Source: a virus. Taken from it: 64,000 bases of DNA. The position numbers were made by a program, and so were the translations under genes. The stretch lies in the IMG/VR virus record IMGVR_UViG_3300008952_003529. One strand, written 5' to 3'. The notes beneath the pieces were generated by a model. That model searched no databases. It saw nothing but the letters and a program-made list of their open reading frames with translations, and was not told the DNA's origin. Positions 5,240 through 23,006 of this stretch are shown here, in pieces (the stretch's first letter is position 1; the number at the start of each line of letters is the position of its first letter).

Positions 5240-6643
5240 ATGGCATCCACTATTGCATTATTAGATTCGGTTCCATCCGGCCAATTTTCACAGTATAACA
5301 AAAATTTTCAAGAAAAGATTTTGCAGGGCTTGTTATCTGACAAAACTTGGGCAATGCAGATGGTAGAAGTTATGCGCTCAGATTTTTTTGAACTTCGATA
5401 TCTTGAATATCTTTGTGAAAAATACTTTACGTACTTTGCTGAGTACCGCTGCTTCCCAACACAGGTTTTGCTCATTAGTATTATTAAGGATGCCCTAAGC
5501 GAAGACGGTGATATTTTGCTCAGAGATCAAATAGTATCATATTTGATAAGAATGAAAGAAAACCCGAGCCCAAATGATCTGGCGTACGTTAAGGCTAAGG
5601 CGCTAGATTTTTGTAAAAGACAGGCCTTTAAAGAAGCCCTTGAAGAATCAGTTAATTTGATCACCACCGGTGAATTTGAGCATGTTATTACTCTAATGAA
5701 GAACGCTGTTTCGATTGGGATGCCCAATACTGCTGGTCACGATTTTTTTGAAGATATGGAAGCGAGATTTTTGAAAATCCAGCGTTGCGTTTGCCCAACA
5801 GGCTTAGCAGAATTGGATTCGAGAGAAATTTTAAATGGTGGCCTGGGACGAGGTGAAATTGGCGTCGTTGTTGCCAACACTGGTGTCGGAAAATCTCATT
5901 GGCTTGTGGCAATGGGAGCGAACGCAATGAGGAATGGAAAAAATGTTCTTCACTACACTTTTGAGTTGACAGAGCAGGCTGTTGGATTGAGATATGATGC
6001 CAATCTGTGTAATATATCAGCGTCTGATGTAATTGACCATAAGAAGACTGTTCAAGACTACTATGGGAAAAATGAAGGATTTGGCCGATTGATGATCAAA
6101 GAGTATCCAACAGGTTCCGCATCTGTGGTGTCTATTAGGAACCATATCGAGAAATTAGCTTTTCGTAATTTCAAGCCAAGCGTCATAATCGTAGATTACG
6201 CAGATATTATGCGCTCCACCAAGTCATATGACTCTTTACGACACGAATTAAAGCTAATTTATGAGGAGCTAAGAAATTTGGCCATGGAGCTTAATATTCC
6301 TATATGGACTGCATCACAAGCAAATAGGGATTCTGCAAATTCTGATATTGTTGGGCTTGAGAACATGTCAGAAGCATATGGGAAAGCCATGGTTGCAGAT
6401 TTTGTAGTGTCGATTTCCAGAAAGGCAACCGAAAAAGCCACCGGTGCCGGCCGGCTATTTATTGCAAAAAATCGTGCAGGGAAGGACGGGATCGTTTTTC
6501 CTATTCACATTGACACAGCTACATCTAAGATTAGCGTATTGGACGAAGATGTTTCTACACTTTCAGAAACAATCGAAAATGATGAGAAAGAAATGAAGTC
6601 TGCGCTTAGAAAAAAATGGAAGTCAATTTCAGGTATCGCTTAG
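5240..6643 (+). CDS. dnaB: Replicative DNA helicase (DnaB / T4 gp41-like)
   Basis: Walker A ANTGVGKS, TFEL, Walker B IIVDYAD, WTASQANR, KNRAG motifs. Confidence 0.9.
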   Translation: MASTIALLDSVPSGQFSQYNKNFQEKILQGLLSDKTWAMQMVEVMRSDFFELRYLEYLCEKYFTYFAEYRCFPTQVLLISIIKDALSEDGDILLRDQIVSYLIRMKENPSPNDLAYVKAKALDFCKRQAFKEALEESVNLITTGEFEHVITLMKNAVSIGMPNTAGHDFFEDMEARFLKIQRCVCPTGLAELDSREILNGGLGRGEIGVVVANTGVGKSHWLVAMGANAMRNGKNVLHYTFELTEQAVGLRYDANLCNISASDVIDHKKTVQDYYGKNEGFGRLMIKEYPTGSASVVSIRNHIEKLAFRNFKPSVIIVDYADIMRSTKSYDSLRHELKLIYEELRNLAMELNIPIWTASQANRDSANSDIVGLENMSEAYGKAMVADFVVSISRKATEKATGAGRLFIAKNRAGKDGIVFPIHIDTATSKISVLDEDVSTLSETIENDEKEMKSALRKKWKSISGIA

Positions 6644-6654
6644 GGAGTTCCGGT

Positions 6655-9162
6655 ATGACATATGACTATAAAACGGCGGTCGAAAAATCGCTGGCTTATT
6701 TTGGTGGTGATGAGTTAGCTGCTAATGTCGTTGTAACGAAATATCTTTTGATGAATAAAGATGGTGAGTATCTTGAAGCCACACCTAACGATATGCACCG
6801 TCGTCTCGCAAAAGAATTTCACCGGATTGAAGCGAAATATGAGAACCCACTAACTGAAGAAGAAATATTTGATTTGTTGAAGGGATTTAAGAAGATAATC
6901 CCCCAAGGCTCTCCCATGGCTGGAATTGGTAACAATACCAAATTACAGTCTATCTCGAATTGTTTTGTCATTCCAGCGCCCGAAGACAGTTATGGGGGAA
7001 TTCTTTCAACAGACCAAAGACTCGTTCAGATTGCCAAGCGCCGCGGCGGTGTTGGTTTTGATATAAGCACAATTCGACCAAAGGGCCTTTCTACTGCTAA
7101 CGCTGCAAAGACTACCGACGGAATTGAGGTCTTCATGGATCGCTTTTCTAATTCGTGTCGAGAGGTTGCGCAAGGTGGCCGCCGCGGCGCATTGATGCTT
7201 ACGATATCTGTTCATCATCCTCAAATTCGTGACTTTATAAAAATCAAGAAAGACCTTAAAAGAGTGACAGGTGCGAATATTTCTATTCGTGTAACTGATG
7301 AGTTTATGGAAGCAGTTCAATCAAGCTCAAATGTACATTTACGTTGGCCTGTAGAGAGCAAAGAGTGCACGATATCAGAGTACGTTGACGCAAAAACGCT
7401 TTGGCATGAAATTATAGAGTCAGCTCATGCCACCGCTGAACCCGGATTGTTGTTTTGGGATACGGCAAAAAAGATGACTCCTTCTGATATTTACGCTAAC
7501 GAAGGTTTTTCATCGTGCTCCACAAACCCTTGCGGCGAGATTATTTTGTCTCCTCATGACAGCTGCAGATTGATGCTTGTGAACTTGACAAGCTTCGTAA
7601 AGAAAAAGTGGAAGTCTAATGCAAAATTTGACTTCGCTTCATTCGGCAAAGTGGTTCAAAAAGCTCAACGCTTAATGGACGACATGATCGATATTGAGAT
7701 TGAGCAAGTTGAAAAGATTCTTAAGAAGATTGAGGCCGATCCAGAGTCTGGCGAGGTAAAGCAAATCGAGAAAGACTTGTGGACAAATATCCAGACGATG
7801 GCTGTTCTAGGGCGTAGAACTGGCCTTGGAATCACGGGACTTGGTGATACTTTAGCAATGCTGGGTGTACAATATGGTAGCAAAAAAAGCATCAAGCTCA
7901 CTGAAGAAATATATCGAGCGCTAGCGGTTAATGCGTACTATTCATCTGCTGTCTTGGCAAAAGAACGCGGTGCGTTTCCTGCGCACGATCACGCCAAAGA
8001 GGATGGTCATCCATTTTTAGAGAGAATTTGGAAAGAAAATCCAGAAATTAAGGAAATGAATAAGGAATTTGGTCGCCGAAATATTTCAATAACTACGACG
8101 GCCCCAGCCGGATCAGTTTCTGTACTGACACAAACAACTTCCGGTATCGAGCCAGCTTATATGCTACACTATACACGTCGTAAAAAAATTACAGGTCAAG
8201 ACGAGGCTGCTAGTGTGGATTTTGTTGATGATAGTGGCGATAAGTGGCAAGAATATACAGTTTATCATCATGGATTTAGAGAGTGGATAGAACATTCGGC
8301 ATTTCGCAGCGATGATGATCCTGAAGAGATGGTCGAACTGAGTCCGTATAAGTGTTCAACAGCCTCAGAAATTGATTGGGTTGCAAAAGTGAGAATGCAG
8401 GCAGCTGCTCAAAAATGGGTATGTCATGCAATCTCTAATACGACAAATCTTCCCGCAGATATAGACATTGAGACCGTTAAAGATGTTTATATGACTGGTT
8501 GGGAGCTAGGGTGCAAGGGTATCACTGTATATCGTGATGGTTCACGAACTGGTGTTTTGGTCGCGAAAACAGAGGAAGAAGTTGACCCCCGGGAAAGTGA
8601 AAAGATCATCATAAAATCAGCTCCCAGAAGACCTGAAATATTAGACTGTGATATTCACCAGGCAAACATTAAGGGTGAGGCCTGGACGTTACTAGTGGGG
8701 TTAATGGACGGTGTTCCCTACGAAATTATTGGTGGTCTTGCGGAATATGTGGAAATTCCACGACGCTATATCACTGGTCAAATTCGGCGTCGCCCTCGTA
8801 AGTCAATGCCTTCGAAATATGATTTAATTTTTGGGCAGAATGGTGACGAGATGACCATCAAGGACATTGTTAAGGTTTTTGATAACCCCAACCATTCGGC
8901 ATTTACAAGGACAATTTCGTTAGCATTACGCCATGGCGTCCCGACCCAGTATTTGGTGGAGCAATTATTAAAAGATAAAGATGCGGATTTATTTTGTTTT
9001 TCAAAAGTCATTGCACGGTGCTTGAAGAAATATATCGCAGATGGTACAAGGGCTAGCAATGGCGTACTTGAGTGTGATTGTGAAACACCAGAAGACTGTA
9101 ATGTTGTTTATCAAGAGGGCTGTGCGACATGCTTGACATGCGGCATGGCGAAGTGCGGATAG
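6655..9162 (+). CDS. nrdJ: Class II (adenosylcobalamin-dependent) ribonucleotide reductase
   Basis: SNCF, RRGGGVG, QGGRRGA, TNPCGEI, TTAPAGS, KGITVYRDGSR and a C-terminal Cys-rich tail; no small-subunit gene adjacent. Start moved to ATG 6655 after the AGGGAG RBS. Confidence 0.9.
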   Translation: MTYDYKTAVEKSLAYFGGDELAANVVVTKYLLMNKDGEYLEATPNDMHRRLAKEFHRIEAKYENPLTEEEIFDLLKGFKKIIPQGSPMAGIGNNTKLQSISNCFVIPAPEDSYGGILSTDQRLVQIAKRRGGVGFDISTIRPKGLSTANAAKTTDGIEVFMDRFSNSCREVAQGGRRGALMLTISVHHPQIRDFIKIKKDLKRVTGANISIRVTDEFMEAVQSSSNVHLRWPVESKECTISEYVDAKTLWHEIIESAHATAEPGLLFWDTAKKMTPSDIYANEGFSSCSTNPCGEIILSPHDSCRLMLVNLTSFVKKKWKSNAKFDFASFGKVVQKAQRLMDDMIDIEIEQVEKILKKIEADPESGEVKQIEKDLWTNIQTMAVLGRRTGLGITGLGDTLAMLGVQYGSKKSIKLTEEIYRALAVNAYYSSAVLAKERGAFPAHDHAKEDGHPFLERIWKENPEIKEMNKEFGRRNISITTTAPAGSVSVLTQTTSGIEPAYMLHYTRRKKITGQDEAASVDFVDDSGDKWQEYTVYHHGFREWIEHSAFRSDDDPEEMVELSPYKCSTASEIDWVAKVRMQAAAQKWVCHAISNTTNLPADIDIETVKDVYMTGWELGCKGITVYRDGSRTGVLVAKTEEEVDPRESEKIIIKSAPRRPEILDCDIHQANIKGEAWTLLVGLMDGVPYEIIGGLAEYVEIPRRYITGQIRRRPRKSMPSKYDLIFGQNGDEMTIKDIVKVFDNPNHSAFTRTISLALRHGVPTQYLVEQLLKDKDADLFCFSKVIARCLKKYIADGTRASNGVLECDCETPEDCNVVYQEGCATCLTCGMAKCG

Positions 9163-9166
9163 TGAT

Positions 9167-9562
9167 ATGAGTTATTCAGGTAAAGTTATAGACCATTTTG
9201 AGAACCCAAAAAATGTAGGAAGCTTCGATCAGGATGACCCTAGTGTTGGTACTGGGATTGTAGGCGCTCCAGCTTGCGGTGATGTAATGAAGCTTCAACT
9301 TAAAATTAGCGACACCGGCATTATCGAGGATGCCAAATTTAAAACTTTTGGTTGCGGTTCTGCAATTGCATCCACCTCGTTAATAACTGTATGGGTCAAA
9401 GGAAAAACGCTGGAAGAAGCCTCAGAGATAAAAAATACTGATGTTGCAAAAGAGCTTTGTTTACCACCAGTAAAGATCCACTGCTCTGTGTTGGCAGAAG
9501 ACGCGATTAAAGCTGCAATAGAAGACTATAGGAGAAGAAGTGCACTGGACATCAAAAATTGA
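9167..9562 (+). CDS. iscU: Fe-S cluster scaffold protein IscU/NifU
   Basis: YSGKVIDHFENPKNVG, GAPACGDVMKLQ, KTFGCGSAIAS, LPPVKIHCS: all three Cys present. Confidence 0.95.
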   Translation: MSYSGKVIDHFENPKNVGSFDQDDPSVGTGIVGAPACGDVMKLQLKISDTGIIEDAKFKTFGCGSAIASTSLITVWVKGKTLEEASEIKNTDVAKELCLPPVKIHCSVLAEDAIKAAIEDYRRRSALDIKN

Positions 9563-10142
9563 TAATAAAATTGAAAAAGTTGAGCTAAGAAAAAGCCCGG
9601 TCATTGTAAGAGTTAATAAATTTGACGAAGAATCAGCAAAAAAGTTTAACGATGAAATGGCTTTAGCACATAACACTGGACAAGATGTGATTCCAGTTGT
9701 TATTGATTCGTACGGAGGACAAGTTTACAGTTTGATGGCGATGATAAGCGCAATAAAGAATGCTGAAATACCCGTCGCTACGATCGTCGAAGGAAAAGCG
9801 ATGTCCTGTGGTGCGATTCTTTTTTCATTCGGTGAAGAGGGTCGCCGTTTTATGGACCCCAATGCAACAGTGATGATTCATGATGTGTCGTCAATGGACA
9901 TGGGGAAAGTAGAAGAATTAAAGGCTGGCGCAAAAGAAGCAGATCGTCTAAACGGTATTGTATACAAGATGATGGCTCAAAATTGTGGCAAGAAAGACGA
10001 TTATTTTATGAAGATTGTCGACAAGAAGAAACACGCAGACTGGTTTCTGGATGCTAAAGAAGCAAAGAAGCATGGGCTTGCAAATCACCTCCGTGTTCCA
10101 AAGCTTTCTATAACGGTCGAAGTTAATATCGAGATGGAGTAA
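9540..10142 (+). CDS. clpP: ClpP-like serine protease
   Basis: IDSYGGQV, GKAMSCGA (catalytic Ser), ATVMIHD (His), WFLDAKEAKKHGLA. Confidence 0.82.
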   Translation: MHWTSKIDNKIEKVELRKSPVIVRVNKFDEESAKKFNDEMALAHNTGQDVIPVVIDSYGGQVYSLMAMISAIKNAEIPVATIVEGKAMSCGAILFSFGEEGRRFMDPNATVMIHDVSSMDMGKVEELKAGAKEADRLNGIVYKMMAQNCGKKDDYFMKIVDKKKHADWFLDAKEAKKHGLANHLRVPKLSITVEVNIEME

Positions 10143-10146
10143 GGAA

Positions 10147-11106
10147 GTGGATAAAGACTTTTATAATAAATCTAGCTCTGATAGTCTGGGGTGGGAACCG
10201 TCTTGGTTCGGGTGTGAAGAGTTTAATAACGATCTAGTAAAAGCCGTCAAGGAGTGGCAGAAATCATACGGTTTAACAGCGGATGGTCTTGTTGGCCCAA
10301 TGACGTATAGAAGGCTCTGGACCGAAAGGGAGACGAACATTACTGATTGGATGGATGCGTTACCATTAAAACGAACCTATCGAGATGGAGACAAGCACAT
10401 CGTCCACAACGGGCACTTTATTCCCATAGAGTGGGACAAAGTAATTTTGTGGGATGAGTCTGATGGGTTCAAATCAAAAGACGGGTGCTACACAAGCTAT
10501 GCCGGAAAGCCCGATCGTAAACCAACGATGTTTGTCAACCATTGGGACGTATGTCTCAGCGCAGAATCGTGCGCAAAGGTTTTGAATAAGCGTGGAATAT
10601 CAGTACACTTTCTTATTGATAATGACGGTACCATTTTTCAGATGCTAGATACGCAGCATAAGGCATGGCATGCTGGAATTCCTCGCTACGAAGGTGGGAA
10701 CTCAAAGGGAATTGGCGTCGAAATTTCTAATGCATATTACTTGAAATATCAAGACTGGTATACTAAACAGGGTCTAGGGAAAAGACCGGTTCAAGAACAT
10801 GGTTATGTGCATGGAAGAACATTACCTCCGTTTACAGACTTTTATCCTGTCCAACTTGAGGCCCTTAAGGCTCTTTGGAAAGCGATACACACTGGAATTG
10901 GAATACCCTTAGATTATCCTAAGAATGTAGAAGGTCACATCGAAACAGGGGTGCACAAAGAGTGTGAGCGAGGAAAATTTCACGGTTTTTGTAACCATTA
11001 TAATTTCACTCGCGGAAAGATAGATTGTGCCGGATTAGATTTACCGAAACTGCTACAAGATGTTGCTGCTTCTCCTGCTTATTGTATCGATAAAGAACGA
11101 GGATAA
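10147..11106 (+). CDS. N-acetylmuramoyl-L-alanine amidase with N-terminal peptidoglycan-binding domain (endolysin-like)
   Basis: WQKSYGLTADGLVGPMT PG-binding repeat; NHWD, SVHFLID, AWHAG, GVEI, HYNF...KIDC amidase_2 motifs; GTG start. Confidence 0.82.
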   Translation: MDKDFYNKSSSDSLGWEPSWFGCEEFNNDLVKAVKEWQKSYGLTADGLVGPMTYRRLWTERETNITDWMDALPLKRTYRDGDKHIVHNGHFIPIEWDKVILWDESDGFKSKDGCYTSYAGKPDRKPTMFVNHWDVCLSAESCAKVLNKRGISVHFLIDNDGTIFQMLDTQHKAWHAGIPRYEGGNSKGIGVEISNAYYLKYQDWYTKQGLGKRPVQEHGYVHGRTLPPFTDFYPVQLEALKALWKAIHTGIGIPLDYPKNVEGHIETGVHKECERGKFHGFCNHYNFTRGKIDCAGLDLPKLLQDVAASPAYCIDKERG

Positions 11107-11110
11107 GATA

Positions 11111-11674
11111 ATGCCAGCATGTGATGGAAAGCTTTTTAAAAAATTTAAGCGGGGCTCCGCTTTTGTTGAGACAGGGGCATATCTTGGCGAGGGCGTGCAA
11201 GCTGCACTAAGGGCTGGGTTTGATAAAATCTGGACCGTTGAATTATCTGAGTCGCAGTACAAACATGTAGCCAAGAAATTTTGCGATAATGAAAAAGTTG
11301 TATGTTTATTTGGAGACTCGAGAGACCTTCTTGGGGAGATGCTGTTAAAGTGTAGAGACATGGACCCACTGATTTGGCTTGATGCACATGGCGGTCAATC
11401 AAACACGGGGGATATTACAATGCAAGATATGATTCCGCTTGAGTGTGGTATTATCAATAATGTGATGGAAAAACGAAGTTTTACGATTTTAATCGATGAT
11501 TTCGGCTACAGTAACGACAAGACTCTCCTAGAAGAAAATTGGATTGTTAAAGAAGTAAGAAGAATCTGGCCTGATGCTATTATTACTAGGGAAGACGGTT
11601 GCGGCGATCATCGCGGGGGATACCGGACTATGCCCGGTTTTGTCTTAGCAGTGCGTGTGGAAAATAAAATCTAG
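11111..11674 (+). CDS. Putative class I SAM-dependent methyltransferase-like protein
   Basis: FVETGAYLGEG motif I, TVE, LFGDS, IWLDAH, ILIDD. Start moved to ATG 11111. Confidence 0.55.
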   Translation: MPACDGKLFKKFKRGSAFVETGAYLGEGVQAALRAGFDKIWTVELSESQYKHVAKKFCDNEKVVCLFGDSRDLLGEMLLKCRDMDPLIWLDAHGGQSNTGDITMQDMIPLECGIINNVMEKRSFTILIDDFGYSNDKTLLEENWIVKEVRRIWPDAIITREDGCGDHRGGYRTMPGFVLAVRVENKI

Positions 11675-11743
11675 TGATTCAACGATTTACTGAGTGATGG
11701 AGTAGCGTAGTATTATTGCGTATATTCTGCTATAGGAGAAAAC

Positions 11744-12754
11744 ATGAAAGTAGCGCATATTGACTATATTTGGGTAGACGGGTTTGATGTACCATCAATT
11801 AGGTCAAAGACGAAGGTAGGTCCCATCACAACTAACGATGAGGGCCAATCCGCGATAGAAATAACACAGTGGAATTTTGATGGCTCATCGACCGGCCAGG
11901 CTTCGACGAGCGAGTCTGAAAGACTTCTAACACCTGTTCGTCTTTACCAGGTGTCACCAAGCCAGTACATGGTACTTTGTGAGGTGGAGGACGTTGATGG
12001 AACAGCACATTCTACAAACCATAGAGCTGTTCTGCGAGAGTATCTTACGGAAAATCCGACCAAAAATCTTTGGCTTGGTTTCGAACAAGAATATTTTTTA
12101 ACTGATAATAGAAGTAAGAATATGTTTTGGGCGGGTGAAGTAGAGCCGCCAAACACACCCATGTATTATTGTTCTTCTGGTGGGGACAGAGTGATGAAAC
12201 GAGGCTTAGTAAGAGCCCACGCTGATATTTGCTGGTCAATGGGAATTCAGGTTGTTGGATATAACGCTGAAGTCGCTCCAAGTCAATGGGAATTTCAATG
12301 TTTCGGTGAAGACACGCTAAAGGCATGTGATGATTTATGGGTTTCAAGATATATGTTGTCACTTCTCGCCGAGAACGATGGCGTTGGTGTCGATTGGTCC
12401 CCCAAGCCACATACAGGATGGAACGGCTCAGGTTGTCATACTAATTTTTCAACCGAGGAGATGCGGACAGGTACGGACAACGAGAAGTTGTATAATAGCA
12501 TTTTAGAAAAGATGTCCATGAACCATACCTCAACGATATCAGAATATGGCGAAGGGAATAATGATAGATTAGTGGGAGCGTATGAGACATCTAGTTTCGA
12601 GAAGTTTTCGTACGGCGTCGCCGACCGTAGTGCTTCTGTTAGGATTCCCACATCGACAGTCGACAACGAGTGGAAAGGGTATTTAGAGGACCGACGACCT
12701 TCTTCAAATTGTGATCCGTACCGAGTCGCAAACCAATTAATAAGATTTGTGTGA
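11744..12754 (+). CDS. glnII: Glutamine synthetase type II
   Basis: WNFDGSSTGQA, GFEQEY, NAEVAPSQWEFQ, WNGSGCHTNFST, RSASVRIP, GYLEDRRPSSNCDPY. Confidence 0.93.
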   Translation: MKVAHIDYIWVDGFDVPSIRSKTKVGPITTNDEGQSAIEITQWNFDGSSTGQASTSESERLLTPVRLYQVSPSQYMVLCEVEDVDGTAHSTNHRAVLREYLTENPTKNLWLGFEQEYFLTDNRSKNMFWAGEVEPPNTPMYYCSSGGDRVMKRGLVRAHADICWSMGIQVVGYNAEVAPSQWEFQCFGEDTLKACDDLWVSRYMLSLLAENDGVGVDWSPKPHTGWNGSGCHTNFSTEEMRTGTDNEKLYNSILEKMSMNHTSTISEYGEGNNDRLVGAYETSSFEKFSYGVADRSASVRIPTSTVDNEWKGYLEDRRPSSNCDPYRVANQLIRFV

Positions 12755-12763
12755 GGGAATGCT

Positions 12764-14308
12764 GTGTCGTTAAAATTTACTGTTGATTTAACCGAAGAGC
12801 AGGCGTCTGTATTGTCTCTTGATGTTATAACATTTTTAGACGCCTTATGTGAAGAGTTCAGTCTTACGATTGCTCATCTTCTGGATGAGCGTGGGGGATT
12901 TACACCTGGTTTTCTGGAAGAAACGAAGTGGATACGAGAAAGCCAGTGGAAGATTGCGGATTTCTCAAAAGACCTCGAAGACAGACGTGTCGAAATTACT
13001 GGTCCTCCCGATCGAAAAATGATAATCAACGCATTGAATTCCGGCGCGAATGTGTACATGGCAGACTTTGAGGACTCCAATTCTCCGACGTGGAGCAACT
13101 GTGTAAATGGCCAGATAAATTTGCGCGATGCGATTCATAACGAGATTGATTTTCATGATGAGAAAAGAGACAAAATGTACTCCCTCGGCTCCGAGCTAGC
13201 AGTGTTATTTGTTCGTCCCCGCGGACTTCATTTATCAGAGGGTCATGTGATTCATGATTTGTGGGATGCGCCAATTCCAGCAGCGCTCTTCGACTTTGGT
13301 GTTTACATTGCGAATAATATCACCACCCTTGTGGAGACCGGCCGCAGTCCCTATTTTTATCTTCCCAAATTAGAGCACCACAATGAAGCTGCTCTTTGGA
13401 ATAAGATTTTTTCATTTTCTGAAGAATATTTTGGCGTGAAGAATGGAGTTATTAAGGCAACTGTGTTGATTGAAACCCTTCCAGCGGCATTTCAAATGGA
13501 CGAGATATTATACGAATTGCGAGAGCATTCAGTTGGGTTGAATTGCGGTCGGTGGGACTATATTTTTAGTTTCATAAAAACATTTCGAAATGACCCAAAG
13601 TATATTGTTCCTGATCGAGATGAAGTGGGTATGACGCAACATTTTATGCAGTCCTACTCGAGACTCTTAATACAAACATGTCACCGCCGGGGAGCGCATG
13701 CGATGGGCGGTATGGCTGCTCAGATACCTATAAAGAACGACCCTGTAGCGAACTCAACCGCGATTAGAAAGGTAGAGCAAGACAAGATTCGGGAAGTAAT
13801 GGATGGACATGACGGCACATGGGTAGCGCATCCAGGATTAGTGGCAATCGCAAAAAAAGTTTTCGATGAATATCTTATCACGCCCAACCAAATTAACAGA
13901 CCTCTATCAAATATTGAGATATCAACTGAAGACTTGGTGGAAGTTCCTGTAGGATCTTTCACAGAGGAAATGTTAAGAAAAAATATAAAAATTGGATATG
14001 AATATATGAAGGCCTGGGTTGCGGGGTCTGGGTGCGTGCCTCTTAACAATTTAATGGAAGACGCCGCCACTGCTGAGATATCTCGTGCACAGACCTGGCA
14101 GTGGTTGCGGCATAACGTAATGCTTGATAACGGAGCTGTTGTGACGCAAGAGTATTTAGGCGCACTGTTTCAGGAAGAATTGATTGGTGAGTGCGGAGTA
14201 GCGTATGATCTATGGCACATATTGTGCTTTCAAAATAATATGGATGAGTTTTTAACACTACAAGCCTATAATAGCTTGGAATTAAATGGAAAATTGGAGA
14301 TTCTCTGA
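12764..14308 (+). CDS. aceB: Malate synthase A
   Basis: [64 protein letters not shown]. Confidence 0.96.
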
Positions 14309-15546
14309 TGACAGCTAATAATCGATGGGACGGAATTACCCGCCCTTACTCCGCTGAGCAGGTAGATAAATTACGCGGCTCATTTCGTGAAAACTATGGT
14401 TTCGCAACACACGTTGCAACAAAGCTTTGGAACCAATTATGCTCTGAGCCCTACGTTCATGCAATGGGAGCTGTGACTGGAAATCAAGCGATGCAGATGG
14501 TCAAGGCCGGTACACCCTCGATTTATTGCTCTGGATGGCAAGTCGCCGCCGACGCGAATGATTCTCATTCCATGTACCCGGACCAAAGTTTATATGCGGT
14601 AAACAGTGTTCCAATGCTTATTGAAAAAATAAATAATGCTCTTCGTCGTGCCGACCAGGTCGAATGGATTGAAAATTGCGGGTCAATAAGAGACTGGTTC
14701 GCACCGATTGTTGCAGATGCAGAAGCAGGTTTCGGTGGAAACCTCAATGCGTTTGAATTGATGCAAGCAATGATTCGCGCCGGCGCAGCAGGGGTGCATT
14801 TTGAAGACCAGTTATCTTCGGCCAAGAAGTGTGGTCATTTAGGCGGAAAAGTTCTTGTACCGACCAGCGAGTTTGTTAAGAAATTGATAGCTGCTCGGCT
14901 AGCAGCGGATGTGATGGATGTACCAACTATTTTAATTGCCCGTACCGATGCCGATTCAGCCCGTTTGATAACGTTAGATGTTGATCCTATAGACCAACAA
15001 TTTATTACATCAAATGAACGAACCGCAGAAGGATTTTATCATATCACTGGCGGGATAGATATGGCCATATCTCGAGGCTTGGCGTATGCGCCGTATGCCG
15101 ACCTTCTTTGGTGCGAAACCAGCACGCCTGATTTAGCAGAGGCGCAAAAATTCGCTGACGCTATACATGAAAAATTTCCCGGTAAGATGCTGGCGTATAA
15201 TTGTTCACCTTCTTTTAACTGGCGCGCGAACCTCGATGATGAAACTATTGCAAAGTTTCAAAATTCTTTGGGGGAAATGGGTTACAAATTTCAGTTTATC
15301 ACCTTGGCTGGTTTTCATTGCTTGAATTATTCAATGTTCAATTTAGCGCTGGATTACAATAAGCGAGATATGTCTGCATACGCCGAACTTCAAGCTGCTG
15401 AATTTGCCGCTGAAGATATTGGATATACTGCTACAAAGCACCAACGTGAAGTAGGAACAGGATATTTCGACGCAGTTGCACAAACGATATCGTCAGATTC
15501 ATCGACTTTAGCTTTAAAAGAGTCCACCGAAGCTGAGCAATTTTAG
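14308..15546 (+). CDS. aceA: Isocitrate lyase
   Basis: [28 protein letters not shown], catalytic [28 protein letters not shown]. Confidence 0.97.
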
Positions 15547-16253
15547 TGAGTAGAATTGAATTATATGATGACAAGATAGGCGTTGTTGAATACGTTTCCC
15601 ATATGGGAGAAGACATTACAGTTGTTAATAGCGCCAGGGTTTCTTTTGGGAAACATAAGGATGTAATGGATGACAAAGATAGAAAGCTTATTAAGTATCT
15701 TATCAAACATAAGCATACGTCAACACTCGAACACTGTGTTATAACATATCGGTTCATAGTACCCCTTTTCGTTCGAAGCCAGCATCACCGTCATCGAACA
15801 TGGAGCTATAACGAGATATCACGTCGTTATACTGACGAGAATCTCCGGTTTTATGAGCCAGCAAGTTTCAGAACGCAGCATAAATCCAATCGACAAGCTT
15901 CAAATATTAATGAGCTAAGGGACCCTGTAGTGATACCAGACCTTTCGGATACGGATTATGGTATGACTGCATCTCAAGTTGTCAGTGATCATCACCGACG
16001 TTCTGTAATGTTATACAACGATCTTCTCAGGGTAGGTGTATGCCGCGAACAGGCTCGAGGTGTTCTCTCCCAAAACCTGTACACTGAGTATTACGGAACT
16101 GTCAATTTAAACAATCTTTTAAAGTTTGTTTCGCTTCGAACCCATGACGGTGCCCAATGGGAGATTCAACAAGTAGCAAAAGCTTGTTTAGAAATTGCTA
16201 AAAATTGCTGGCCAGAAACAATAGAAGCCTATCAAGAATTAACATCATCTTGA
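15546..16253 (+). CDS. thyX: FAD-dependent thymidylate synthase
   Basis: VNSARVSF, HTSTLEH, RHRTWSYNEISRRY ThyX signature, REQARGVL, HDGAQWEI; GTG start overlapping the aceA stop. Confidence 0.95.
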   Translation: MSRIELYDDKIGVVEYVSHMGEDITVVNSARVSFGKHKDVMDDKDRKLIKYLIKHKHTSTLEHCVITYRFIVPLFVRSQHHRHRTWSYNEISRRYTDENLRFYEPASFRTQHKSNRQASNINELRDPVVIPDLSDTDYGMTASQVVSDHHRRSVMLYNDLLRVGVCREQARGVLSQNLYTEYYGTVNLNNLLKFVSLRTHDGAQWEIQQVAKACLEIAKNCWPETIEAYQELTSS

Positions 16254-16319
16254 TTCAAGAAAGCTTATCTTTTGCTCTATATTTAAGAGCTGGATAGTTT
16301 GTTTCGGCGGTAATATAAT

Positions 16320-16556: not shown

Positions 16557-16560
16557 GATT

Positions 16561-17022: not shown

Positions 17023-17256
17023 ATGAACACTAATGAACTAAAAATGAATGATGATGCAATCAATCATCTCGCAAAGCTTCTGCAAATGGCTATTTTAACT
17101 GGTACTGATATTATGGACAATCTTCGTTCTGCTACATTTGTTGTACACAACGATGAGCTTCATATCCATCCAGATTATCATGAAGCGTTTGAGCAGAATA
17201 TTCAAAATATGATGTCTGCCTTGGCAACTGAAGAAGAAGTTGAAGAAGTTGAGTGA
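17023..17256 (+). CDS. Hypothetical protein
   Basis: Strong GGAGG RBS; TATAAT upstream at 16994. Confidence 0.65.
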   Translation: MNTNELKMNDDAINHLAKLLQMAILTGTDIMDNLRSATFVVHNDELHIHPDYHEAFEQNIQNMMSALATEEEVEEVE

Positions 17257-17623
17257 CAAATTAGACCAAATGTTCGCCCGGCGGACAGCGTTTATGACAC
17301 GCTTAAAGGGAAAGAAGCCAGCTGAGTATCCAGATTGGCCGATCGATTTGTCAGATAAACGAAACCAACAGCACGTAAGAGATATGGCTCTAAGGGGTGT
17401 TGAGGAAATGTTCGAGGCATTGCAGCATCTCAAAAACTGGAAACCGCATAGAGACACAGAGGTTCATGAATTTGATAGAAGCGAATTTTTGGAGGAGGTT
17501 GTTGATGCGTTTAACTACTTTATGTCAGTACTTGTCTTGACTGGAGTCGATGCTGAAGAGCTTTTTAGCGCGTACTGTGAAAAAGACCAGATAATTCATG
17601 ATCGGTTGGATGAGGGTTATTGA
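17240..17623 (+). CDS. All-alpha NTP pyrophosphatase (dimeric dUTPase / T4 gp56 dCTPase-like)
   Basis: EEMFEALQHLKNWKPH and EEVVDAFNYF acidic EE..E / E..D motifs. Exact start uncertain. Confidence 0.72.
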   Translation: MKKLSDKLDQMFARRTAFMTRLKGKKPAEYPDWPIDLSDKRNQQHVRDMALRGVEEMFEALQHLKNWKPHRDTEVHEFDRSEFLEEVVDAFNYFMSVLVLTGVDAEELFSAYCEKDQIIHDRLDEGY

Positions 17624-17644
17624 TCGACGATATTTAATGACGTT

Positions 17645-18325
17645 ATGCAGCAATTCAAGCGTCAACTTCAAAGAAAAATTCGAATATTAAAATCTGAGCT
17701 AAAAATGCTCCAAAATTATTATGACGAATCGTATAACCTTTTTAAAGAGTATGAGCAGGAATGGCTTAGCGATTTAAATCACTTTCAAAAAAAATTTAAG
17801 GGCCCTCAACCAGTTGATGAAACCCCCGATACGACAGCAACAGGCGTGGGGTATAAGCTGGGACAAGCTGAAGAACGAAAAAATCATGATACAGCCGAGC
17901 AACCAGAGAAATTTCATCCGGAATGGGCAAAAAAATTATTTCGTAAGATTGCTATGTTGACGCATCCAGACCGCGCGATGCCAGAAGACAAAGCTAGGTT
18001 GGAAGCGTTATTTTTAAAAGCATCCACAGCACTAGAAAGCGAAGATCATGAAGAATTATTATCACTCGCTTTAGATCTCGGAATTTCGATTGATATAGAT
18101 GCACCCGAGCTTAGACCTCTTCTCGAAAAGCGTGTCGCTCAAGTGAAGGAAAAAATAGCTTCTTTAGAATGTGACATTCCATGGATCTGGGGCGAAGGAT
18201 TCGGTCTCCTTGAAATACGAATTCCTCTTTTAAGAGCAGTATTAGCTAATGATGGAATCGATACAAACGATGAAGAATTAAGAACTGAGATTAGTAAAAG
18301 AGAGAGCGAAAATGATACCGGGTGA
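17645..18325 (+). CDS. Coiled-coil protein with J-domain-like HPD motif
   Basis: AKKLFRKIAMLTHPDR matches J-domain helix II plus the HPD loop. Confidence 0.6.
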   Translation: MQQFKRQLQRKIRILKSELKMLQNYYDESYNLFKEYEQEWLSDLNHFQKKFKGPQPVDETPDTTATGVGYKLGQAEERKNHDTAEQPEKFHPEWAKKLFRKIAMLTHPDRAMPEDKARLEALFLKASTALESEDHEELLSLALDLGISIDIDAPELRPLLEKRVAQVKEKIASLECDIPWIWGEGFGLLEIRIPLLRAVLANDGIDTNDEELRTEISKRESENDTG

Positions 18326-18527
18326 TGTGGCGTGTATTACGGAGTACCACTTCGGTGTAGGCTCAGACGGAACATCTTACATTCTCACGCCAGGTGACGG
18401 CGGATTGATTGTCGAACGCTATCATGAATTCGGGACAGTTATATTATTTATATTAGGTAACCTCATTGAGGTGGAAGAGCAAGCGCTAAGTCTACGTGAG
18501 TATAATAACCGGGAGATTATCAAATGA
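18312..18527 (+). CDS. Hypothetical protein
   Basis: Overlaps both neighbours in a translationally coupled arrangement. Confidence 0.55.
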   Translation: MIPGDVACITEYHFGVGSDGTSYILTPGDGGLIVERYHEFGTVILFILGNLIEVEEQALSLREYNNREIIK

Positions 18528-19354
18528 CAAAGAAGATTAATCAAGATCGATTAAACGAAATTATAAAAGAAGAAGTTGTTAGTCATTTTTTGATGGAATC
18601 AAACTTACGAGTGGTGAGCACCTTAACGAACCGCGTTACGCGCGCGATTCTTTTCCTTGTAAAAGATGGTAAGACAACCACTGAGGAATATCAAGTCTTG
18701 GAAGCAGACGATTTAATCGACACTGCCGGCCTACAAGATGAGACAGCTATCTACAGTCTTGATATAGATTTTCTCCCTGGAAAAATTAATCCAGACTTGG
18801 TCAGTGATGACTTCGGCGAAGACGACACTTATTTAAGCGTTTCGTTATTTATTACTCCCTCTGATGCGATCCATATTTCTGGTGATAATATCAACCGTAC
18901 GGGGAGCCCCGGAATTCATGTGGATGTATTTGCTCCGAACCCGCTCCCTGATAAGAAGCGTGCTCTTCTTCGATCTGAGATTTCGAATACTGTCCGTCAT
19001 GAGATTGAGCATATGCTTCAAGAGCTTCCAATGTATTATCGAGGGATGGAAGCTGCCGAGGGTGGAACATACGAATATGAAGACTTCGAAGTCATCGGTA
19101 CGCCGGTGTCAGATCGCGCGAAAGATTACTATCTTGATGTAAAAGAGGTCTCTGCTCATATTATGGGATATGCGCATAATGCACAATCAACAAAGGCATT
19201 AGAAAGTGAAATACGTTCCATGCTTCAGAATTGGGCTAAGCAAGATTGGGAAAAAGATCGAGAGCGATATATCGCACCTGAAGATGTAGATATTATTGCA
19301 GGCGCCTGGATGGATTGGGCAAAAAAACACCTGAGAAAACAAAGATTTCGTTGA
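18524..19354 (+). CDS. Leader-bearing protein with HExxH zinc-binding motif
   Basis: N-terminal KINQDRLNEIIKEE; VRHEIEH followed by a downstream Glu (KEVSAH), as in zincin metalloproteases. Confidence 0.6.
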   Translation: MTKKINQDRLNEIIKEEVVSHFLMESNLRVVSTLTNRVTRAILFLVKDGKTTTEEYQVLEADDLIDTAGLQDETAIYSLDIDFLPGKINPDLVSDDFGEDDTYLSVSLFITPSDAIHISGDNINRTGSPGIHVDVFAPNPLPDKKRALLRSEISNTVRHEIEHMLQELPMYYRGMEAAEGGTYEYEDFEVIGTPVSDRAKDYYLDVKEVSAHIMGYAHNAQSTKALESEIRSMLQNWAKQDWEKDRERYIAPEDVDIIAGAWMDWAKKHLRKQRFR

Positions 19355-19379
19355 AAAAGATTGCTAATTTCTCTATAAT
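19351..19379 (+). promoter_or_regulatory. Sigma70-like promoter
   Basis: TTGAAA-17 bp-TATAAT, upstream of the GGAG RBS and dnaE start. Confidence 0.75.
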
Positions 19380-19397
19380 GATTGGTATGGAGACAAA

Positions 19398-22300
19398 ATG
19401 CGAAAGACGAAACTAATCCCACCCAGTAAATTTATCTCCCTTCATTCACATGACGGGTTTTCTACTTTTGACGGTTTGGGGTACCCACAAGAACACATCG
19501 ATTTTGTTATTGAGAATGGCATGGATGGATGGTGTCTTACTAATCATGGTCATATGAATTCTTTTGGTCATGCATTTCTCCATGCAGAAAAAGTTCAAAA
19601 GCGCGGTGGTTCGTTTAAGTTCGTTCCAGGCTGTGAAATGTATGTGCATCCTGACCTTGAAGTATGGCAGCTCGATTACGAAATTAGGCAAGCAGCAAAG
19701 AAGGGTGACAAGGAGGCTATGTTCGCTCTTAGAGAGCGTCGTGAAGCAATAACAACTCCTCTTACTGCGATCATTGATGGCGATGATGAGATTGTTGATA
19801 TAGGCAAAGAAGACGCTGGCCTCACTGTAGAAAATGAAGAGGAAACCAAGTCTGGGAAATTTTATGATCCAGTAAAGCGTCGTCATCATCTTGTGGTTTT
19901 GCCAAAGACGAGTGAAGGTCTCCAGCGCTTGTTTCATCTCGTAAGTAGAGGTTACAGAGAGGGCTTCTATAGGTTCCCCCGTGTAGACTATAGGATGTTA
20001 AGGGAAGCCGCCCAGGGTGGCCATCTGATGATTTCTACAGCATGTATCGGCGGTCCTATTGCTTATGAGGTGTTTCGACATGCTCAACAGATAGAATTTG
20101 ATGATTTAAAGCATACTTTACTTGACGATCCTTCATTTCACCGTAATGTGATGACAGGAGTTGGGAACGCGTACCAAGGTCTTGTTGATGCGGTTGGAAT
20201 GGATGATGTACATCTAGAGCTTCAATTTAACAAGCTTCCTGCACAACACCTTGTTAATCGTGCGATTATTGAATTTGCAAACAACAATGGTCTAAATGAT
20301 AAGCTTGTCGTTACAACGGATTCACATTATGCTCGTCCTGAGCATTGGCGGGAGCGTGAACTTTACAAGAAGTTGGGGTGGTTAAATTATCGTGAATTCG
20401 ACCCATCTAAGTTGCCACAATCAAGAGATGACTTGAAATGTGAACTCTATCCCAAGAATGCACATCAGGTTTGGGACACATATCTTGAGTCAGCCGATGG
20501 CATGGATTTTTATGATGATCAAATAGTAAAAGATGCGATCGAACGGCCCCATGGGATAGTACATGAGGGTATTCAAGACATTGCCCCTGACCGCACTATG
20601 AAGCTCCCATCTTACGTTGTCCCCGAAGGACAAACTGATGATAAGGCGCTTCTTGAGGCTTGTAAAAAGGGGCTTATTGAACGCGGCTTTGCAAGCGACC
20701 CGAAGTATATTGAGCGCTTGAAGTATGAGTTGAAAGTTATCAAAGACAAGAAGTTTTCTCGATACTTTTTGACCATGACGGCAATCATTAACATCGCAAG
20801 AAAAGCAATGTTGGTCGGTCCTGGCCGAGGCTCCGCCGCCGGCAGTCTTGTTGCGTATGTGCTTCGACTAACAGACGTAGATCCTTTTGAGTACGACTTA
20901 ATGTTCGAGAGATTTTTGAACCCTTCTCGAAAAGGCGCCCCTGATATTGATACCGACGTCGGTGACCGCGATCTTTTGATTCAATTAATGAAAGATGAAT
21001 GGGGTGATGAAAATATCATTCCTATTTCGAACTACAACACCTTTAAGCTAAAATCACTTGTTAAGGATATTTCTCGTTTTTATGGAATTCCATTTCACGA
21101 AGTAAATAAGGCATTGTCCACCGTCGATCAAGACGTACGGCGAGCTGTTTTTAAGCCGGGTACTGATAAGAACCTGTTTGTCCTTTTGTACGAAGACGCG
21201 CTAGCACATTCGTCGAAGTTTCGGACATTCATTGAAAAACATCCAGAAGTAGCAGAGCCTATCCAGGTTTTGTTTAAGCAGAACAAGGCCTTGGGTCGAC
21301 ATGCTGGTGGGTGTATTGTAGCAGAGAATATTTCCGAAAGAATGCCACTAATCAAAGCCCGAGGAGAGCTTCAAACTCCATGGGCCGAAGGGATGAACTA
21401 CAAACATCTTGAAACATTCGGGTGGATTAAGTTTGATCTTCTCGGCCTTGAGACACTACGGATTATCCAAAGAACGATTGAGCTTATCCTTCAACGAAAG
21501 GAGGGTATCGAAGAGCCTACATTCGAGCAGGTTTCGGAGTGGTTTGAGACTCACATGAATCCCAAGATTTTAGATTTGAATGACCAGCATGTTTATGAGC
21601 ATGTTTATGCTGAAGGTCGGTTCCCGGGTGTGTTTCAGTTGGCTAATCGAGGCTCTAGAAATCTCTTTAAGAAAGCCAAGCCAAAGAGCATTGTTGATAT
21701 TGCAACACTGACGTCGATTTATCGTCCTGGTCCACTAACTGCAAAAGTTGATAGACACTACATTAAGGCAAAGAACAATCCGGGCAGTGTGGATTATGGT
21801 CATCCGCTGATTAAAGAAGTTCTTGAAGAAACATATGGGATGATTGTTTTTCAAGAGCAAATCATGCAATTGTGCTCTGTGGTCGCTGGTTTCCCAGAAG
21901 AAGAAACCGACACTGTGCGTCGTAGTATTATGAAGAGAAAGGCATCGGAAGCAGAGGAGTCTTTGGCTCAGGCCAGAGCGATTAAGGAACAGTTCGTTGC
22001 AGGTGCTGTAGGGAATGGTGTCGATCGACAGTTGGCAGACGACCTTTACGAGAAGATTTTGTACTTCTCTGGCTATGGATTCAATAAGGCACATGCTGTT
22101 TCATATGCTATTGACTCTTACTACTGTGCTTGGCTGTTGACGTATTACGAGGAAGAGTGGCTTTGCGCTTATCTAGAAGCTATGTCTGGTAATGATAAAA
22201 AGCGAGCTAAGGCTTTTGCTGAAGTTAAGGCTCTCGGTTATCGGGTTGCTCCAATTGATATCAATTATGCAACCAAGAAGTGGACAATTCTTGAGGGGAA

Positions 22301-23006
22301 AAAGTTCATGCCATCTCTTCTTTCATGTAAGGGCATCGGTGCAGCAGCTATCGACGAGCTTGTAGCTAATCGTCCTTACCAGAAAATTGATGATTTGCTC
22401 TGGACAGAAGACGGAAAATGGAAGCACTCTAAATTTAATAAACGCGCAATGGAGGCGCTGATTAACATTCGTGCATTCGAATCAATGAACCTTATCGGCA
22501 GCGAGTTTGAGTCTTATAAACATATGCATGAAGTCTTGATTGGTAAGAATAACGATATTAAAAAATGGACTAAAAAGGATGCTGATCGCGGAAGAAGAAA
22601 TTATCGAGAAGCATTGTTAGAAACGCAAGGTTGCGGAGACTGGTCTCGCAGAGAGCGTGTCGAGAACAGCGTAAAGCACTTCGGCTCGTTTAACGCATCC
22701 ACCCTAATTTCAGACGAAGTACAAGATAAGTTAACAGAAATGAATATCCATCCTATCGATGCGATTAATGGGCATGATTTGTATTGGTTTCTCGTGTCTG
22801 AGGTGAAGCCAAAGATGACAAAGAATAATCGCCCATATTTGCTCGTTACAGCCACAGCATTGTCAGGTCAAACATACCGAATGTTTTGCTGGGGATGGGA
22901 TGGAGAGACAGAGCTACCACTTTACAGCCTTTGTGTCGCAGAAGTAAAAAAGAACGACTTTGGGTATCAAACGTCAATGAAAAAAGTAAAATTGCTACAA
23001 ATGTGA
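19398..23006 (+). CDS. dnaE: DNA polymerase III alpha subunit (family C)
   Basis: PHP domain (LHSH, TNHG, GCE, TDSHY), GPGRGSAAGSLVAY, PDIDTD, GRHAGG, KFDLLGL, FSGYGFNKAHA; C-terminal OB fold. Confidence 0.95.
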   Translation: MRKTKLIPPSKFISLHSHDGFSTFDGLGYPQEHIDFVIENGMDGWCLTNHGHMNSFGHAFLHAEKVQKRGGSFKFVPGCEMYVHPDLEVWQLDYEIRQAAKKGDKEAMFALRERREAITTPLTAIIDGDDEIVDIGKEDAGLTVENEEETKSGKFYDPVKRRHHLVVLPKTSEGLQRLFHLVSRGYREGFYRFPRVDYRMLREAAQGGHLMISTACIGGPIAYEVFRHAQQIEFDDLKHTLLDDPSFHRNVMTGVGNAYQGLVDAVGMDDVHLELQFNKLPAQHLVNRAIIEFANNNGLNDKLVVTTDSHYARPEHWRERELYKKLGWLNYREFDPSKLPQSRDDLKCELYPKNAHQVWDTYLESADGMDFYDDQIVKDAIERPHGIVHEGIQDIAPDRTMKLPSYVVPEGQTDDKALLEACKKGLIERGFASDPKYIERLKYELKVIKDKKFSRYFLTMTAIINIARKAMLVGPGRGSAAGSLVAYVLRLTDVDPFEYDLMFERFLNPSRKGAPDIDTDVGDRDLLIQLMKDEWGDENIIPISNYNTFKLKSLVKDISRFYGIPFHEVNKALSTVDQDVRRAVFKPGTDKNLFVLLYEDALAHSSKFRTFIEKHPEVAEPIQVLFKQNKALGRHAGGCIVAENISERMPLIKARGELQTPWAEGMNYKHLETFGWIKFDLLGLETLRIIQRTIELILQRKEGIEEPTFEQVSEWFETHMNPKILDLNDQHVYEHVYAEGRFPGVFQLANRGSRNLFKKAKPKSIVDIATLTSIYRPGPLTAKVDRHYIKAKNNPGSVDYGHPLIKEVLEETYGMIVFQEQIMQLCSVVAGFPEEETDTVRRSIMKRKASEAEESLAQARAIKEQFVAGAVGNGVDRQLADDLYEKILYFSGYGFNKAHAVSYAIDSYYCAWLLTYYEEEWLCAYLEAMSGNDKKRAKAFAEVKALGYRVAPIDINYATKKWTILEGKKFMPSLLSCKGIGAAAIDELVANRPYQKIDDLLWTEDGKWKHSKFNKRAMEALINIRAFESMNLIGSEFESYKHMHEVLIGKNNDIKKWTKKDADRGRRNYREALLETQGCGDWSRRERVENSVKHFGSFNASTLISDEVQDKLTEMNIHPIDAINGHDLYWFLVSEVKPKMTKNNRPYLLVTATALSGQTYRMFCWGWDGETELPLYSLCVAEVKKNDFGYQTSMKKVKLLQM

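Follow-up and report, generated by a model that had tools for sequence, protein, structure and literature searches.

The window, that is, the whole stretch of 64,000 nucleotides analysed here from the record IMGVR_UViG_3300008952_003529, carries four genes tightly packed on one strand at 11744-16253, for a type II glutamine synthetase (glnII), malate synthase A (aceB), isocitrate lyase (aceA) and the FAD-dependent thymidylate synthase ThyX (Table 1). An earlier reading made from the sequence only had taken the first three of these genes to be intact, and open reading frames, family matches and catalytic motifs all agree with it; its overlapping junctions, TGATG between aceB and aceA and TAGTG between aceA and thyX, were found as claimed when the sequence was re-read. 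For thyX, ATG codons ~20 nt downstream of the GTG may serve as an alternative start. A weak terminator-like hairpin is found at 11622-11638, just upstream of the gap before glnII, and Rfam matched no known RNA, riboswitches included, either ahead of glnII or across 11000-17000. Promoter-like sites are at the level of shuffled sequences (32 vs 31.5) and terminator-like sites are weakly enriched over shuffles (18 vs 10.5); neither kind of site bounds the block convincingly.

Table 1. Features of the block, its flanks and other genes of the window discussed in the text.
Feature	Position	Strand	Evidence or remark
RNR large subunit, IscU/NifU, ClpP, peptidoglycan amidase with PG-binding domain (upstream backbone)	6616..11106	+	Pfam
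IscU/NifU Fe-S scaffold	9167-9562		Pfam; within upstream backbone
orf204, strain-variable insert	11060..11674	+	no Pfam or PHROGs match
Gap before glnII	11675..11743	+	69 nt; ribosome-binding site AGGAGA 5 nt before ATG
Type II glutamine synthetase (GlnII-like), 336 aa	11744..12754	+	NF041605, Gln-synt_C
Malate synthase A (AceB), 514 aa	12764..14308	+	TIGR01344; GTG start 9 nt past glnII stop
Isocitrate lyase (AceA), 412 aa	14308..15546	+	NF011645; start overlaps aceB stop
FAD-dependent thymidylate synthase ThyX, 235 aa	15546..16253	+	TIGR02170; GTG overlaps aceA stop
Downstream backbone, MazG-like through DnaE, including ORFs of no assigned function	17240..23006	+	PHROGs phrog_12184/phrog_405, Pfam
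MazG-like NTP pyrophosphohydrolase	17240-17623	+	within downstream backbone
DnaE-type DNA polymerase III alpha	19398-23006	+	within downstream backbone
dCMP deaminase	29824-30273
Fe/Mn superoxide dismutase	32326-33033
Zeta-toxin-like kinase	53295-54158	-

The two enzymes of the glyoxylate bypass are clearly assigned. AceA scores 725 bits against NF011645 (cut-off 562), 556.5 against TIGR01346 (cut-off 275.9) and 317.9 against PF00463 (cut-off 26), and matches the solved isocitrate lyase 3i4e with an E-value of 8e-182. The KKCGH loop pointed out earlier is present in this alignment, and together with TLAGFH and further conserved blocks it is identical to that of 3i4e; these blocks include what we take to be the Mg and substrate ligands, as in the M. 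tuberculosis and E. coli structures. AceB reaches 685.6 bits with TIGR01344 (cut-off 594.5; PF01274 and PF20659 family) and only 34-37 bits with the G-type models, so it is of the A type. It matches the malate synthase of Bacillus anthracis, 3cux, at 3e-172 and keeps the RPRG, LIET, GRWDY and EDAATAE blocks, which presumably hold the catalytic Arg and Asp and the Glu and Asp metal ligands, judging from the E. coli and B. anthracis structures. Both proteins are ~15-20 residues shorter than the solved bacterial enzymes.

The glutamine synthetase is more diverged. It gives 285 bits with NF041605 (E 6e-85), below the GlnII equivalog cut-off of 500, and 76.5 bits with Pfam Gln-synt_C (PF00120 and PF03951 family). 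It is nevertheless much closer to 16 solved type II enzymes (E 1e-63 to 1e-68) than to an archaeal enzyme that is not of type II (6e-11). The motifs NFDGSS, EQEY, NAEV, QWEFQ, CHTNFS, R..G..ET, RSASVRIP and EDRRPS are kept, the active-site residues are invariant in 36 relatives, and the best cellular GlnII proteins are 40-48% identical. The protein represents a diverged, virus-associated branch of type II. ThyX scores 164 bits with TIGR02170 (cut-off 87.9; PF02511 family), and its RHRxxS signature is present as RHRTWSYNEISRRY. No sign of inactive enzymes was found: AceA, AceB, glutamine synthetase and ThyX all retain their catalytic motifs, and the gene products look catalytically competent and would be expected to be active.

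The record extends over 178 kb, ~44% of the genome by CheckV estimate, and is a genuine fragment of an uncultured marine jumbo phage. The contig that bears the cassette also encodes a portal protein (phrog_213, E 3e-70) and a major head protein (phrog_138, E 4e-72), as well as T4-like replication genes (gp32, RecA and DnaB) upstream of the block; 161 of its 169 ORFs share one strand, and GC is even across the four genes, at ~0.43. All or part of the stretch is found in 14 studies, and no RNA run is listed among those that contain it. A contig of 5,889 bp from another study (X7, ~98% identical) spans from RNR through the amidase, glnII and aceB into aceA, and another independent contig runs from aceA through thyX to 16681. 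Because both edges are bridged by independent assemblies from other marine studies, the cassette is not chimeric, and the join suspected as a possible refutation is absent. As is usual for auxiliary metabolic genes of phages, viral genes lie on both sides, hallmark genes on the same contig, and the genes recur in other viral contigs.

The aceB-aceA pair occurs in at least 13 other IMG/VR contigs, and the two genes adjoin in 13 of 16 related ones. In the phylogenies that had been proposed as a check, viral AceA and AceB form virus-only clades apart from their cellular homologues: all 17 viral AceA sequences fall on one side of a branch with an SH-aLRT of 91 (99 for a core of 14), and all 14 viral AceB sequences on one side of a branch at 100. 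Identity to the best cellular isocitrate lyases, which are spread over many phyla, is only 66-70%. In comparisons with the relatives L008 and L009, pN is 0.07-0.09 for AceA, 0.17-0.19 for AceB and 0.25 for GlnII; RNR has a pN of 0.13 with L008, so that AceA is better conserved than RNR. Because saturation has been reached at synonymous sites (pS at least 0.73), pN and pS are given here in place of dN/dS. On these values the viral aceB-aceA pair is under strong purifying selection, and it is likely to be a form of the bacterial aceBA pair that is ancient, vertically inherited and specific to viruses.

The block stands inside a replication and nucleotide module (RNR-ClpP-...-ThyX-MazG-DnaE), which bears out the embedding in a nucleotide-metabolism region suggested from the sequence. 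The order of the upstream backbone is repeated in related viral contigs, and the downstream backbone is conserved after ThyX; a gene of the thymidylate synthase family is also found downstream of the block. What lies between is changeable. In near-identical contigs of the runs X7 and X8, 3-5 nt stand in place of bases 11144-11644, and across relatives a single slot shows gains, losses and changes of order of glutamine synthetase, aceBA, amidase, IscU and thyX. The closest backbone relatives (L168 and L169) have neither aceBA nor thyX there, and both are therefore dispensable. The block occupies a variable cargo slot of the module, in which the constant unit is aceB-aceA, rather than its link to thyX. 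The coupling of the cassette to thyX and glutamine synthetase, as put forward in the sequence-only reading, does not hold across these relatives, and a fixed glnII-aceBA-thyX operon as a general rule was rejected because gene content and order vary. The adjacency of aceBA to thyX would then most plausibly be an accident of the slot, with no fixed functional coupling.

We regard the block as probably a set of auxiliary metabolic genes, which would provide the phage with a carbon bypass and with ammonium capture during infection. Because the slot belongs to the replication and nucleotide module, the block is probably expressed together with the genes of that module. In the infected cell, succinate and glyoxylate would arise from isocitrate through isocitrate lyase, and malate synthase would then join the glyoxylate to acetyl-CoA, giving malate. 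By avoiding both of the TCA-cycle reactions that release CO2, this bypass could convert C2 units to C4 acids, namely oxaloacetate and then aspartate, while glutamine synthetase would fix ammonium into glutamine. If flux runs in this direction, the joint effect would be that carbon and nitrogen are kept for biosynthesis, including that of nucleotides, during phage replication in a host poor in nutrients, and the phage may benefit accordingly. The more specific routing into dNTP and sugar-nucleotide precursors, which had also been suggested, can be put only conditionally: neither a glutamine amidotransferase nor an acetyl-CoA synthetase of the phage was found in the 178-kb fragment, and this lack of phage enzymes tying the products to phage pathways counts against the preferred explanation. 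AceK (PF06315) likewise had no match in the 178-kb record, as had been claimed, with a control matched in E. coli, although the record is only ~44% of the genome and its lack of AceK does not show that the phage lacks it. Neither AceK nor an isocitrate dehydrogenase gene was found there that could steer flux at the branch point, which also counts against the preferred explanation, as do the dispensability of the genes seen in L168 and L169 and the glutamine synthetase score below the GlnII equivalog cut-off.

Other purposes of the same genes were considered. First, the bypass may mainly serve the infected cell by curbing the formation of NADH and reactive oxygen, or the need for iron-rich respiration, with precursor supply being secondary, a reading of the glyoxylate bypass that stems from reports on marine heterotrophs short of iron or exposed to oxidative stress. 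The IscU/NifU scaffold and the superoxide dismutase in the window are in favour of it, as are the NifU-like gene and peroxiredoxin less than 4 kb from the isocitrate lyase of Phage C48C1. However, five relatives (L168, L169, L171, L176 and L180) have IscU without aceBA, a near-identical strain has aceBA without most of IscU, and the superoxide dismutase is 17 kb off, so that this purpose is unlikely as the main one. A specific link of aceBA to IscU or to antioxidant genes was rejected, because IscU is a backbone gene whether or not aceBA is present.

Second, glnII-aceB-aceA-thyX might be one transcript, forming a coordinated precursor module for modified, AT-rich phage DNA. Here the bypass would feed oxaloacetate and aspartate, dCMP deaminase would make dUMP for ThyX, and glutamine synthetase would recapture the ammonium released by the deaminase, so that nitrogen is not lost in the N-poor ocean. 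This idea is kept alive by one other phage lineage (L105-L107), where GlnII immediately precedes ThyX, and by several backbone relatives, where GlnII is ~0.5-4 kb upstream of ThyX; we consider it improbable. Third, aceBA may aid growth of a carrier host in a lysogenic or pseudolysogenic state rather than lytic replication. A role in host growth has been argued from LPS genes and a zeta-toxin homologue (Nishimura et al., 2017; PMC5332604), and the window has a zeta-toxin-like kinase. Against this, a search of the 178 kb (~44% of the genome) gave no tyrosine integrase, and aceBA is placed inside the replication module of a phage with its own DnaE, RNR and sigma factor, typically a virulent repertoire, which makes such a role very improbable. 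Finally, an artefact, either a chimeric bacterial/phage join or a bacterial contig mislabelled as viral, might be suspected because isocitrate lyase and malate synthase are typically cellular genes and matches in the GenBank phage collection are mostly bacterial contigs or short unannotated fragments under phage names, but the chance of it is negligible and, insofar as contigs can decide the matter, it has been refuted, given the bridging contigs, the recurrence of the pair in the same module of at least 13 other viral contigs, the separate viral clades, and the portal and capsid genes on the cassette's own contig.

The preferred reading, auxiliary genes for carbon bypass and ammonium capture, has precedents. 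The complete shunt had been called unusual among phage genes, which needs correcting: such genes are rare in GenBank phage records, but glyoxylate-shunt genes of phages have been in the literature from 2013/2017 on, and appeared there again in 2025. Nucleotide BLAST against GenBank phages gave only bacterial contigs, short unannotated phage-named fragments and one 63-nt match to a huge-phage record. An aceBA operon was described in the complete 178,632-bp marine viral genome TARA_ERS478052_N000008 (Nishimura et al., 2017, mSphere; PMC5332604). As in the window, malate synthase A (502 aa) is followed by an adjoining isocitrate lyase (411 aa). The genome, ~180 kb long, is that of a tailed phage and has structural genes of T4-like type, along with a zeta-toxin homologue and genes for sugars and LPS (PMC5332604). 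It is a separate genome, with a GC of 37.5% compared with ~43% here, and small genes without annotation flank its aceBA, next to which there is neither glutamine synthetase nor thyX, whereas aceBA here lies between glnII and thyX in an RNR-to-DnaE module. Glyoxylate-cycle enzymes and glutamine synthetase are also reported for huge phages, the latter as 248 genes in 247 of them, for the most part from freshwater and marine settings, and a carbon- and nitrogen-limitation reading is given as here; the main-text passages concerned do not mention glutamine synthetase beside aceBA or an RNR/ClpP-thyX slot (bioRxiv 10.1101/2025.02.27.640493).

Bacterial aceBA(K), such as E. coli aceBAK and the aceB-aceA pairs of many phyla, has the same two enzymes in the same order and on the same strand; of the 80 cellular loci nearest for isocitrate lyase, 48 have aceB immediately upstream. 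With the proteins of Salmonella, an enterobacterium, AceA shares 63% and AceB 47-48% identity, and the viral pair differs from aceBAK in the lack of aceK in the 178-kb record, the shorter proteins, the virus-only clades and the surrounding phage replication genes. The sole genuine phage of the GenBank collection with a related isocitrate lyase is Phage C48C1 (OQ984149.1, Kyanoviridae, 156 kb), in which the protein is 54.5% identical and annotated only as hypothetical. Upstream of it are an endolysin gene and the NifU-like gene, whose product is 73% identical to the IscU of the window; malate synthase had no match in this phage, and neither glutamine synthetase nor thyX stands beside its isocitrate lyase.

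Because earlier publications describe the aceBA pair in marine and in huge phages, the block is a well-supported new example and no discovery, and it opens no new question. It is well checked through intact active sites, purifying selection, virus-only clades and independent assemblies, and it lends support to the view, already in print, that a complete glyoxylate bypass and glutamine synthetase are carried by large marine phages, where they would keep carbon and nitrogen flowing in infection. Its useful part is the comparative result, a variable cargo slot in the replication module in which only aceB-aceA is a fixed pair; this warns against inferring function from neighbouring genes and marks the slot as a likely place for other metabolic genes of phages.

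Close relatives of the glutamine synthetase and the isocitrate lyase are carried by contigs of ~290 kb. The tmRNA of the phage gave no guide to its host: when it was compared by BLAST with 300 sampled genomes in each of two phyla, which were seeded from a Gammaproteobacteria MAG and a Saprospiraceae (Bacteroidota) MAG, almost only its conserved 3′ end (~30-45 nt) was matched, and this was so in both phyla.

The glnII-aceB-aceA-thyX cassette is real, intact, conserved and phage-borne. Families were assigned against the curated equivalog cut-offs of NCBIfam and against Pfam; malate synthase (685.6 versus a cut-off of 594.5), isocitrate lyase (725 versus 562) and ThyX (164 versus 87.9) pass as equivalogs, and the glutamine synthetase (GS) scores 285 on NF041605, below its cut-off of 500, and clearly passes Pfam Gln-synt_C. 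The isocitrate lyase aligns over its full length with the solved structure 3i4e (E 8e-182), with the KKCGH loop and TLAGFH among the blocks kept, and the malate synthase retains RPRG, LIET, GRWDY and EDAATAE against 3cux of Bacillus anthracis (E 3e-172). Among solved structures, GS hits 16 type II enzymes (E about 1e-63 to 1e-68) and otherwise only an archaeal glutamine synthetase (E 6e-11); it carries conserved active-site motifs that are invariant across 36 relatives; ThyX has the RHRxxS signature. The residues within these blocks of AceA, AceB, GS and ThyX that we take to be catalytic were assigned from solved structures. Judged by these motifs, the three metabolic enzymes appear as intact as the sequence-only reading had claimed, and the junctions TGATG (aceB/aceA) and TAGTG (aceA/thyX) are as it described. 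The glnII stop and the GTG of aceB are 9 nt apart, and the block is flanked by a 69-nt and a 66-nt gap.

Features of the window, with strand and supporting detail
Feature	Position	Strand	Detail
GlnII-type GS	first ORF in 11744-16253	+	336 aa
Malate synthase A (aceB)	second ORF in 11744-16253	+	514 aa
Isocitrate lyase (aceA)	third ORF in 11744-16253	+	412 aa
ThyX	fourth ORF in 11744-16253	+	235 aa
MazG	17240-17623		
ThyA-family gene	23041-24069		
NAD-dependent sugar epimerase/dehydratase, DHH/DHHA1 phosphoesterase, MT-A70 methyltransferase	27004-29864	+	behind Glf
dCMP/cytidine deaminase family	29824-30273	+	82 bits
Fe/Mn superoxide dismutase C-terminal domain ORF	32326-33033	+	PF02777, E 5e-21
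Sigma-70 family factor, full	46794-47549	+	regions 1.2, 2, 3; region 4 weak
dCMP/cytidine deaminase family	about 50889-51182	+	26 bits
Zeta-toxin/AAA_33-like kinase	53295-54158	-	
Tubulin/FtsZ-like, weak	54640-55869	-	E 1e-4, below cut-off
One-piece tmRNA	55946-56540	-	adjoins tRNA-Ala; tag ANNNYYYEQALAA; Rfam 125 bits

The source record (178,344 bp), of which the window forms the final 64 kb, is classed in IMG/VR as linear without a terminal repeat and is estimated by CheckV to be 44% complete. The contig of the block also has genes for portal (E 3e-70) and major head (E 4e-72) proteins, for a baseplate wedge-like protein and for a primase, and 161 of the 169 ORFs on the record share one strand. 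Upstream lie gp32, RecA, 5′-3′ exonuclease, DnaB, RNR, IscU, ClpP and amidase, and downstream a MazG-like pyrophosphohydrolase, DnaE, a thymidylate-synthase-family gene and Glf; GC content is uniform over the block. Marine metagenome runs from 14 studies contain all or part of the stretch. When contigs of four runs were compared with it, the two possible source samples being excluded, a 5,889-bp contig (~98% identical) of X7, a run from a separate study, was found to span RNR-ClpP-amidase-glnII-aceB into aceA, and a second X7 contig aceA-thyX up to 16681. Since these independent contigs bridge both edges of the cassette, it is not an assembly chimera, a possibility that the sequence-only reading had raised. 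In contigs of X7 and of another marine run, X8, both ~98% identical, 306 nt are missing from IscU (9222-9527), and 3-5 nt stand in place of 501 nt (11144-11644) comprising most of orf204, an insert with no family match; these length differences are natural strain-level indels.

A GS profile search of viral contigs gave at least 588 stretches, and the backbone in relatives runs RNR-(IscU)-ClpP-(amidase)-GlnII-[variable]-ThyX-o107-o77-MazG-...-DnaE. Contigs sharing this backbone differ between ClpP and ThyX: GlnII-aceBA-ThyX occurs in the window and in the related loci L008 and L021 (= L183); ClpP-aceBA-...-amidase-GlnII in L188 and L189; amidase-aceBA-ThyX without GS in L009; amidase-aceBA without GS in L012, whose contig stops before any thyX; ClpP-aceBA, ~1.8 kb and ThyX in L011; and GlnII, one small gene and ThyX in L170, L174, L175 and L177. 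The closest backbone relatives, L168 and L169, have GS and lack aceBA and ThyX at this position, ThyX directly follows GlnII without aceBA in a separate lineage (L105-L107), and roughly 90 kb separate the GS match from aceBA on contig 3300030329_006583. Because gene contents and order vary in this way, the ClpP-ThyX region is a cargo slot in which aceB-aceA is the only constant pairing. The proposed coupling of the cassette to thyX is therefore no general rule among relatives, and the aceA overlap with thyX is a local feature.

Isocitrate lyases 61-89% identical to that of the window are found on 16 IMG/VR contigs, with aceB directly upstream in 13. Maximum-likelihood phylogeny places the 17 viral AceA together to one side of a branch with SH-aLRT 91 (99 for a core of 14), and likewise all 14 viral AceB (SH-aLRT 100), so that both stand apart from cellular homologues; a single viral origin is supported rather than proven, because the trees are unrooted and their cellular sample is the best hits only (the 80 most similar loci, only 66-70% identical and from many phyla). 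Also in 48 of these 80 loci aceB lies just upstream of aceA, and joint acquisition of the two genes is probable. Synonymous sites are saturated between the window phage and L008/L009 (pS at least 0.73), with non-synonymous differences of 0.07-0.09 in AceA, 0.17-0.19 in AceB and 0.25 in GlnII; all three are under strong purifying selection, and AceA is more conserved than RNR. An NCBI isocitrate lyase labelled Cytophagales bacterium (P0011; 79% identical, with the virus-type length of 411 aa) either stems from a phage contig that was binned wrongly or hints faintly at the host.

Phage-borne aceBA is already published, and the window is a further example, not the first. Both genes were detected in ocean viromes in 2013. 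Nishimura et al. (2017; PMC5332604) then described an aceBA operon in a Tara viral genome that is complete (178,632 bp) and has T4-like structural genes; it differs from the window's genome in GC content, gene lengths and neighbours. No genuine phage in the GenBank phage collection has the aceBA pair; the only one with a related isocitrate lyase is Phage C48C1 (Kyanoviridae; OQ984149.1 44175-45416), whose 54.5% identical enzyme, annotated as a hypothetical protein, lies near NifU-like and peroxiredoxin genes without a malate synthase. GS is present in four huge-phage records of that collection, and no PHROGs family matches malate synthase. Isocitrate lyase also occurs alone on some large contigs of viruses (199 and 327 kb; L022/L023 10001-11203; L019), where the 10 kb around it contain no malate synthase, consistent with the 98-to-22 ratio in a 2025 preprint that reports glyoxylate-cycle enzymes and GS in huge phages (bioRxiv 10.1101/2025.02.27.640493).

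The best-supported reading is a putative functional glyoxylate bypass plus ammonium assimilation. Carbon would be conserved as C4 acids through the bypass and nitrogen as glutamine through GS, both for biosynthesis, and the cassette would be expressed together with the replication genes; the same preprint gives the same nutrient-limitation reading. A version in which phage enzymes use the products is weakened, because glutamine amidotransferase, acetyl-CoA synthetase, isocitrate dehydrogenase and AceK (the last not seen in the sequence-only reading either) are absent from the 178-kb record, an estimated 44% complete. More speculatively, GS may recapture ammonium released by the phage dCMP deaminase en route to ThyX. 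A fair rival is that the bypass serves a redox or iron-sparing purpose, with IscU encoded nearby but without specific linkage to aceBA. Little speaks for a lysogeny-linked role, as a search of the same 44%-complete record turned up no integrase.

Elsewhere in the window, the two deaminase-family matches, ThyX, the ThyA-family gene and MazG form an extensive pyrimidine toolkit, and the superoxide dismutase-domain ORF is an antioxidant gene carried by the phage. The sigma-70 family factor may let the phage direct transcription itself. BLAST of the tmRNA against two bacterial phyla gave matches almost solely to the conserved 3′ end. The window has a single minus-strand block, where the tubulin/FtsZ-like match and the zeta-toxin-like kinase lie, and a zeta-toxin homologue is also present in the Tara aceBA phage (PMC5332604).
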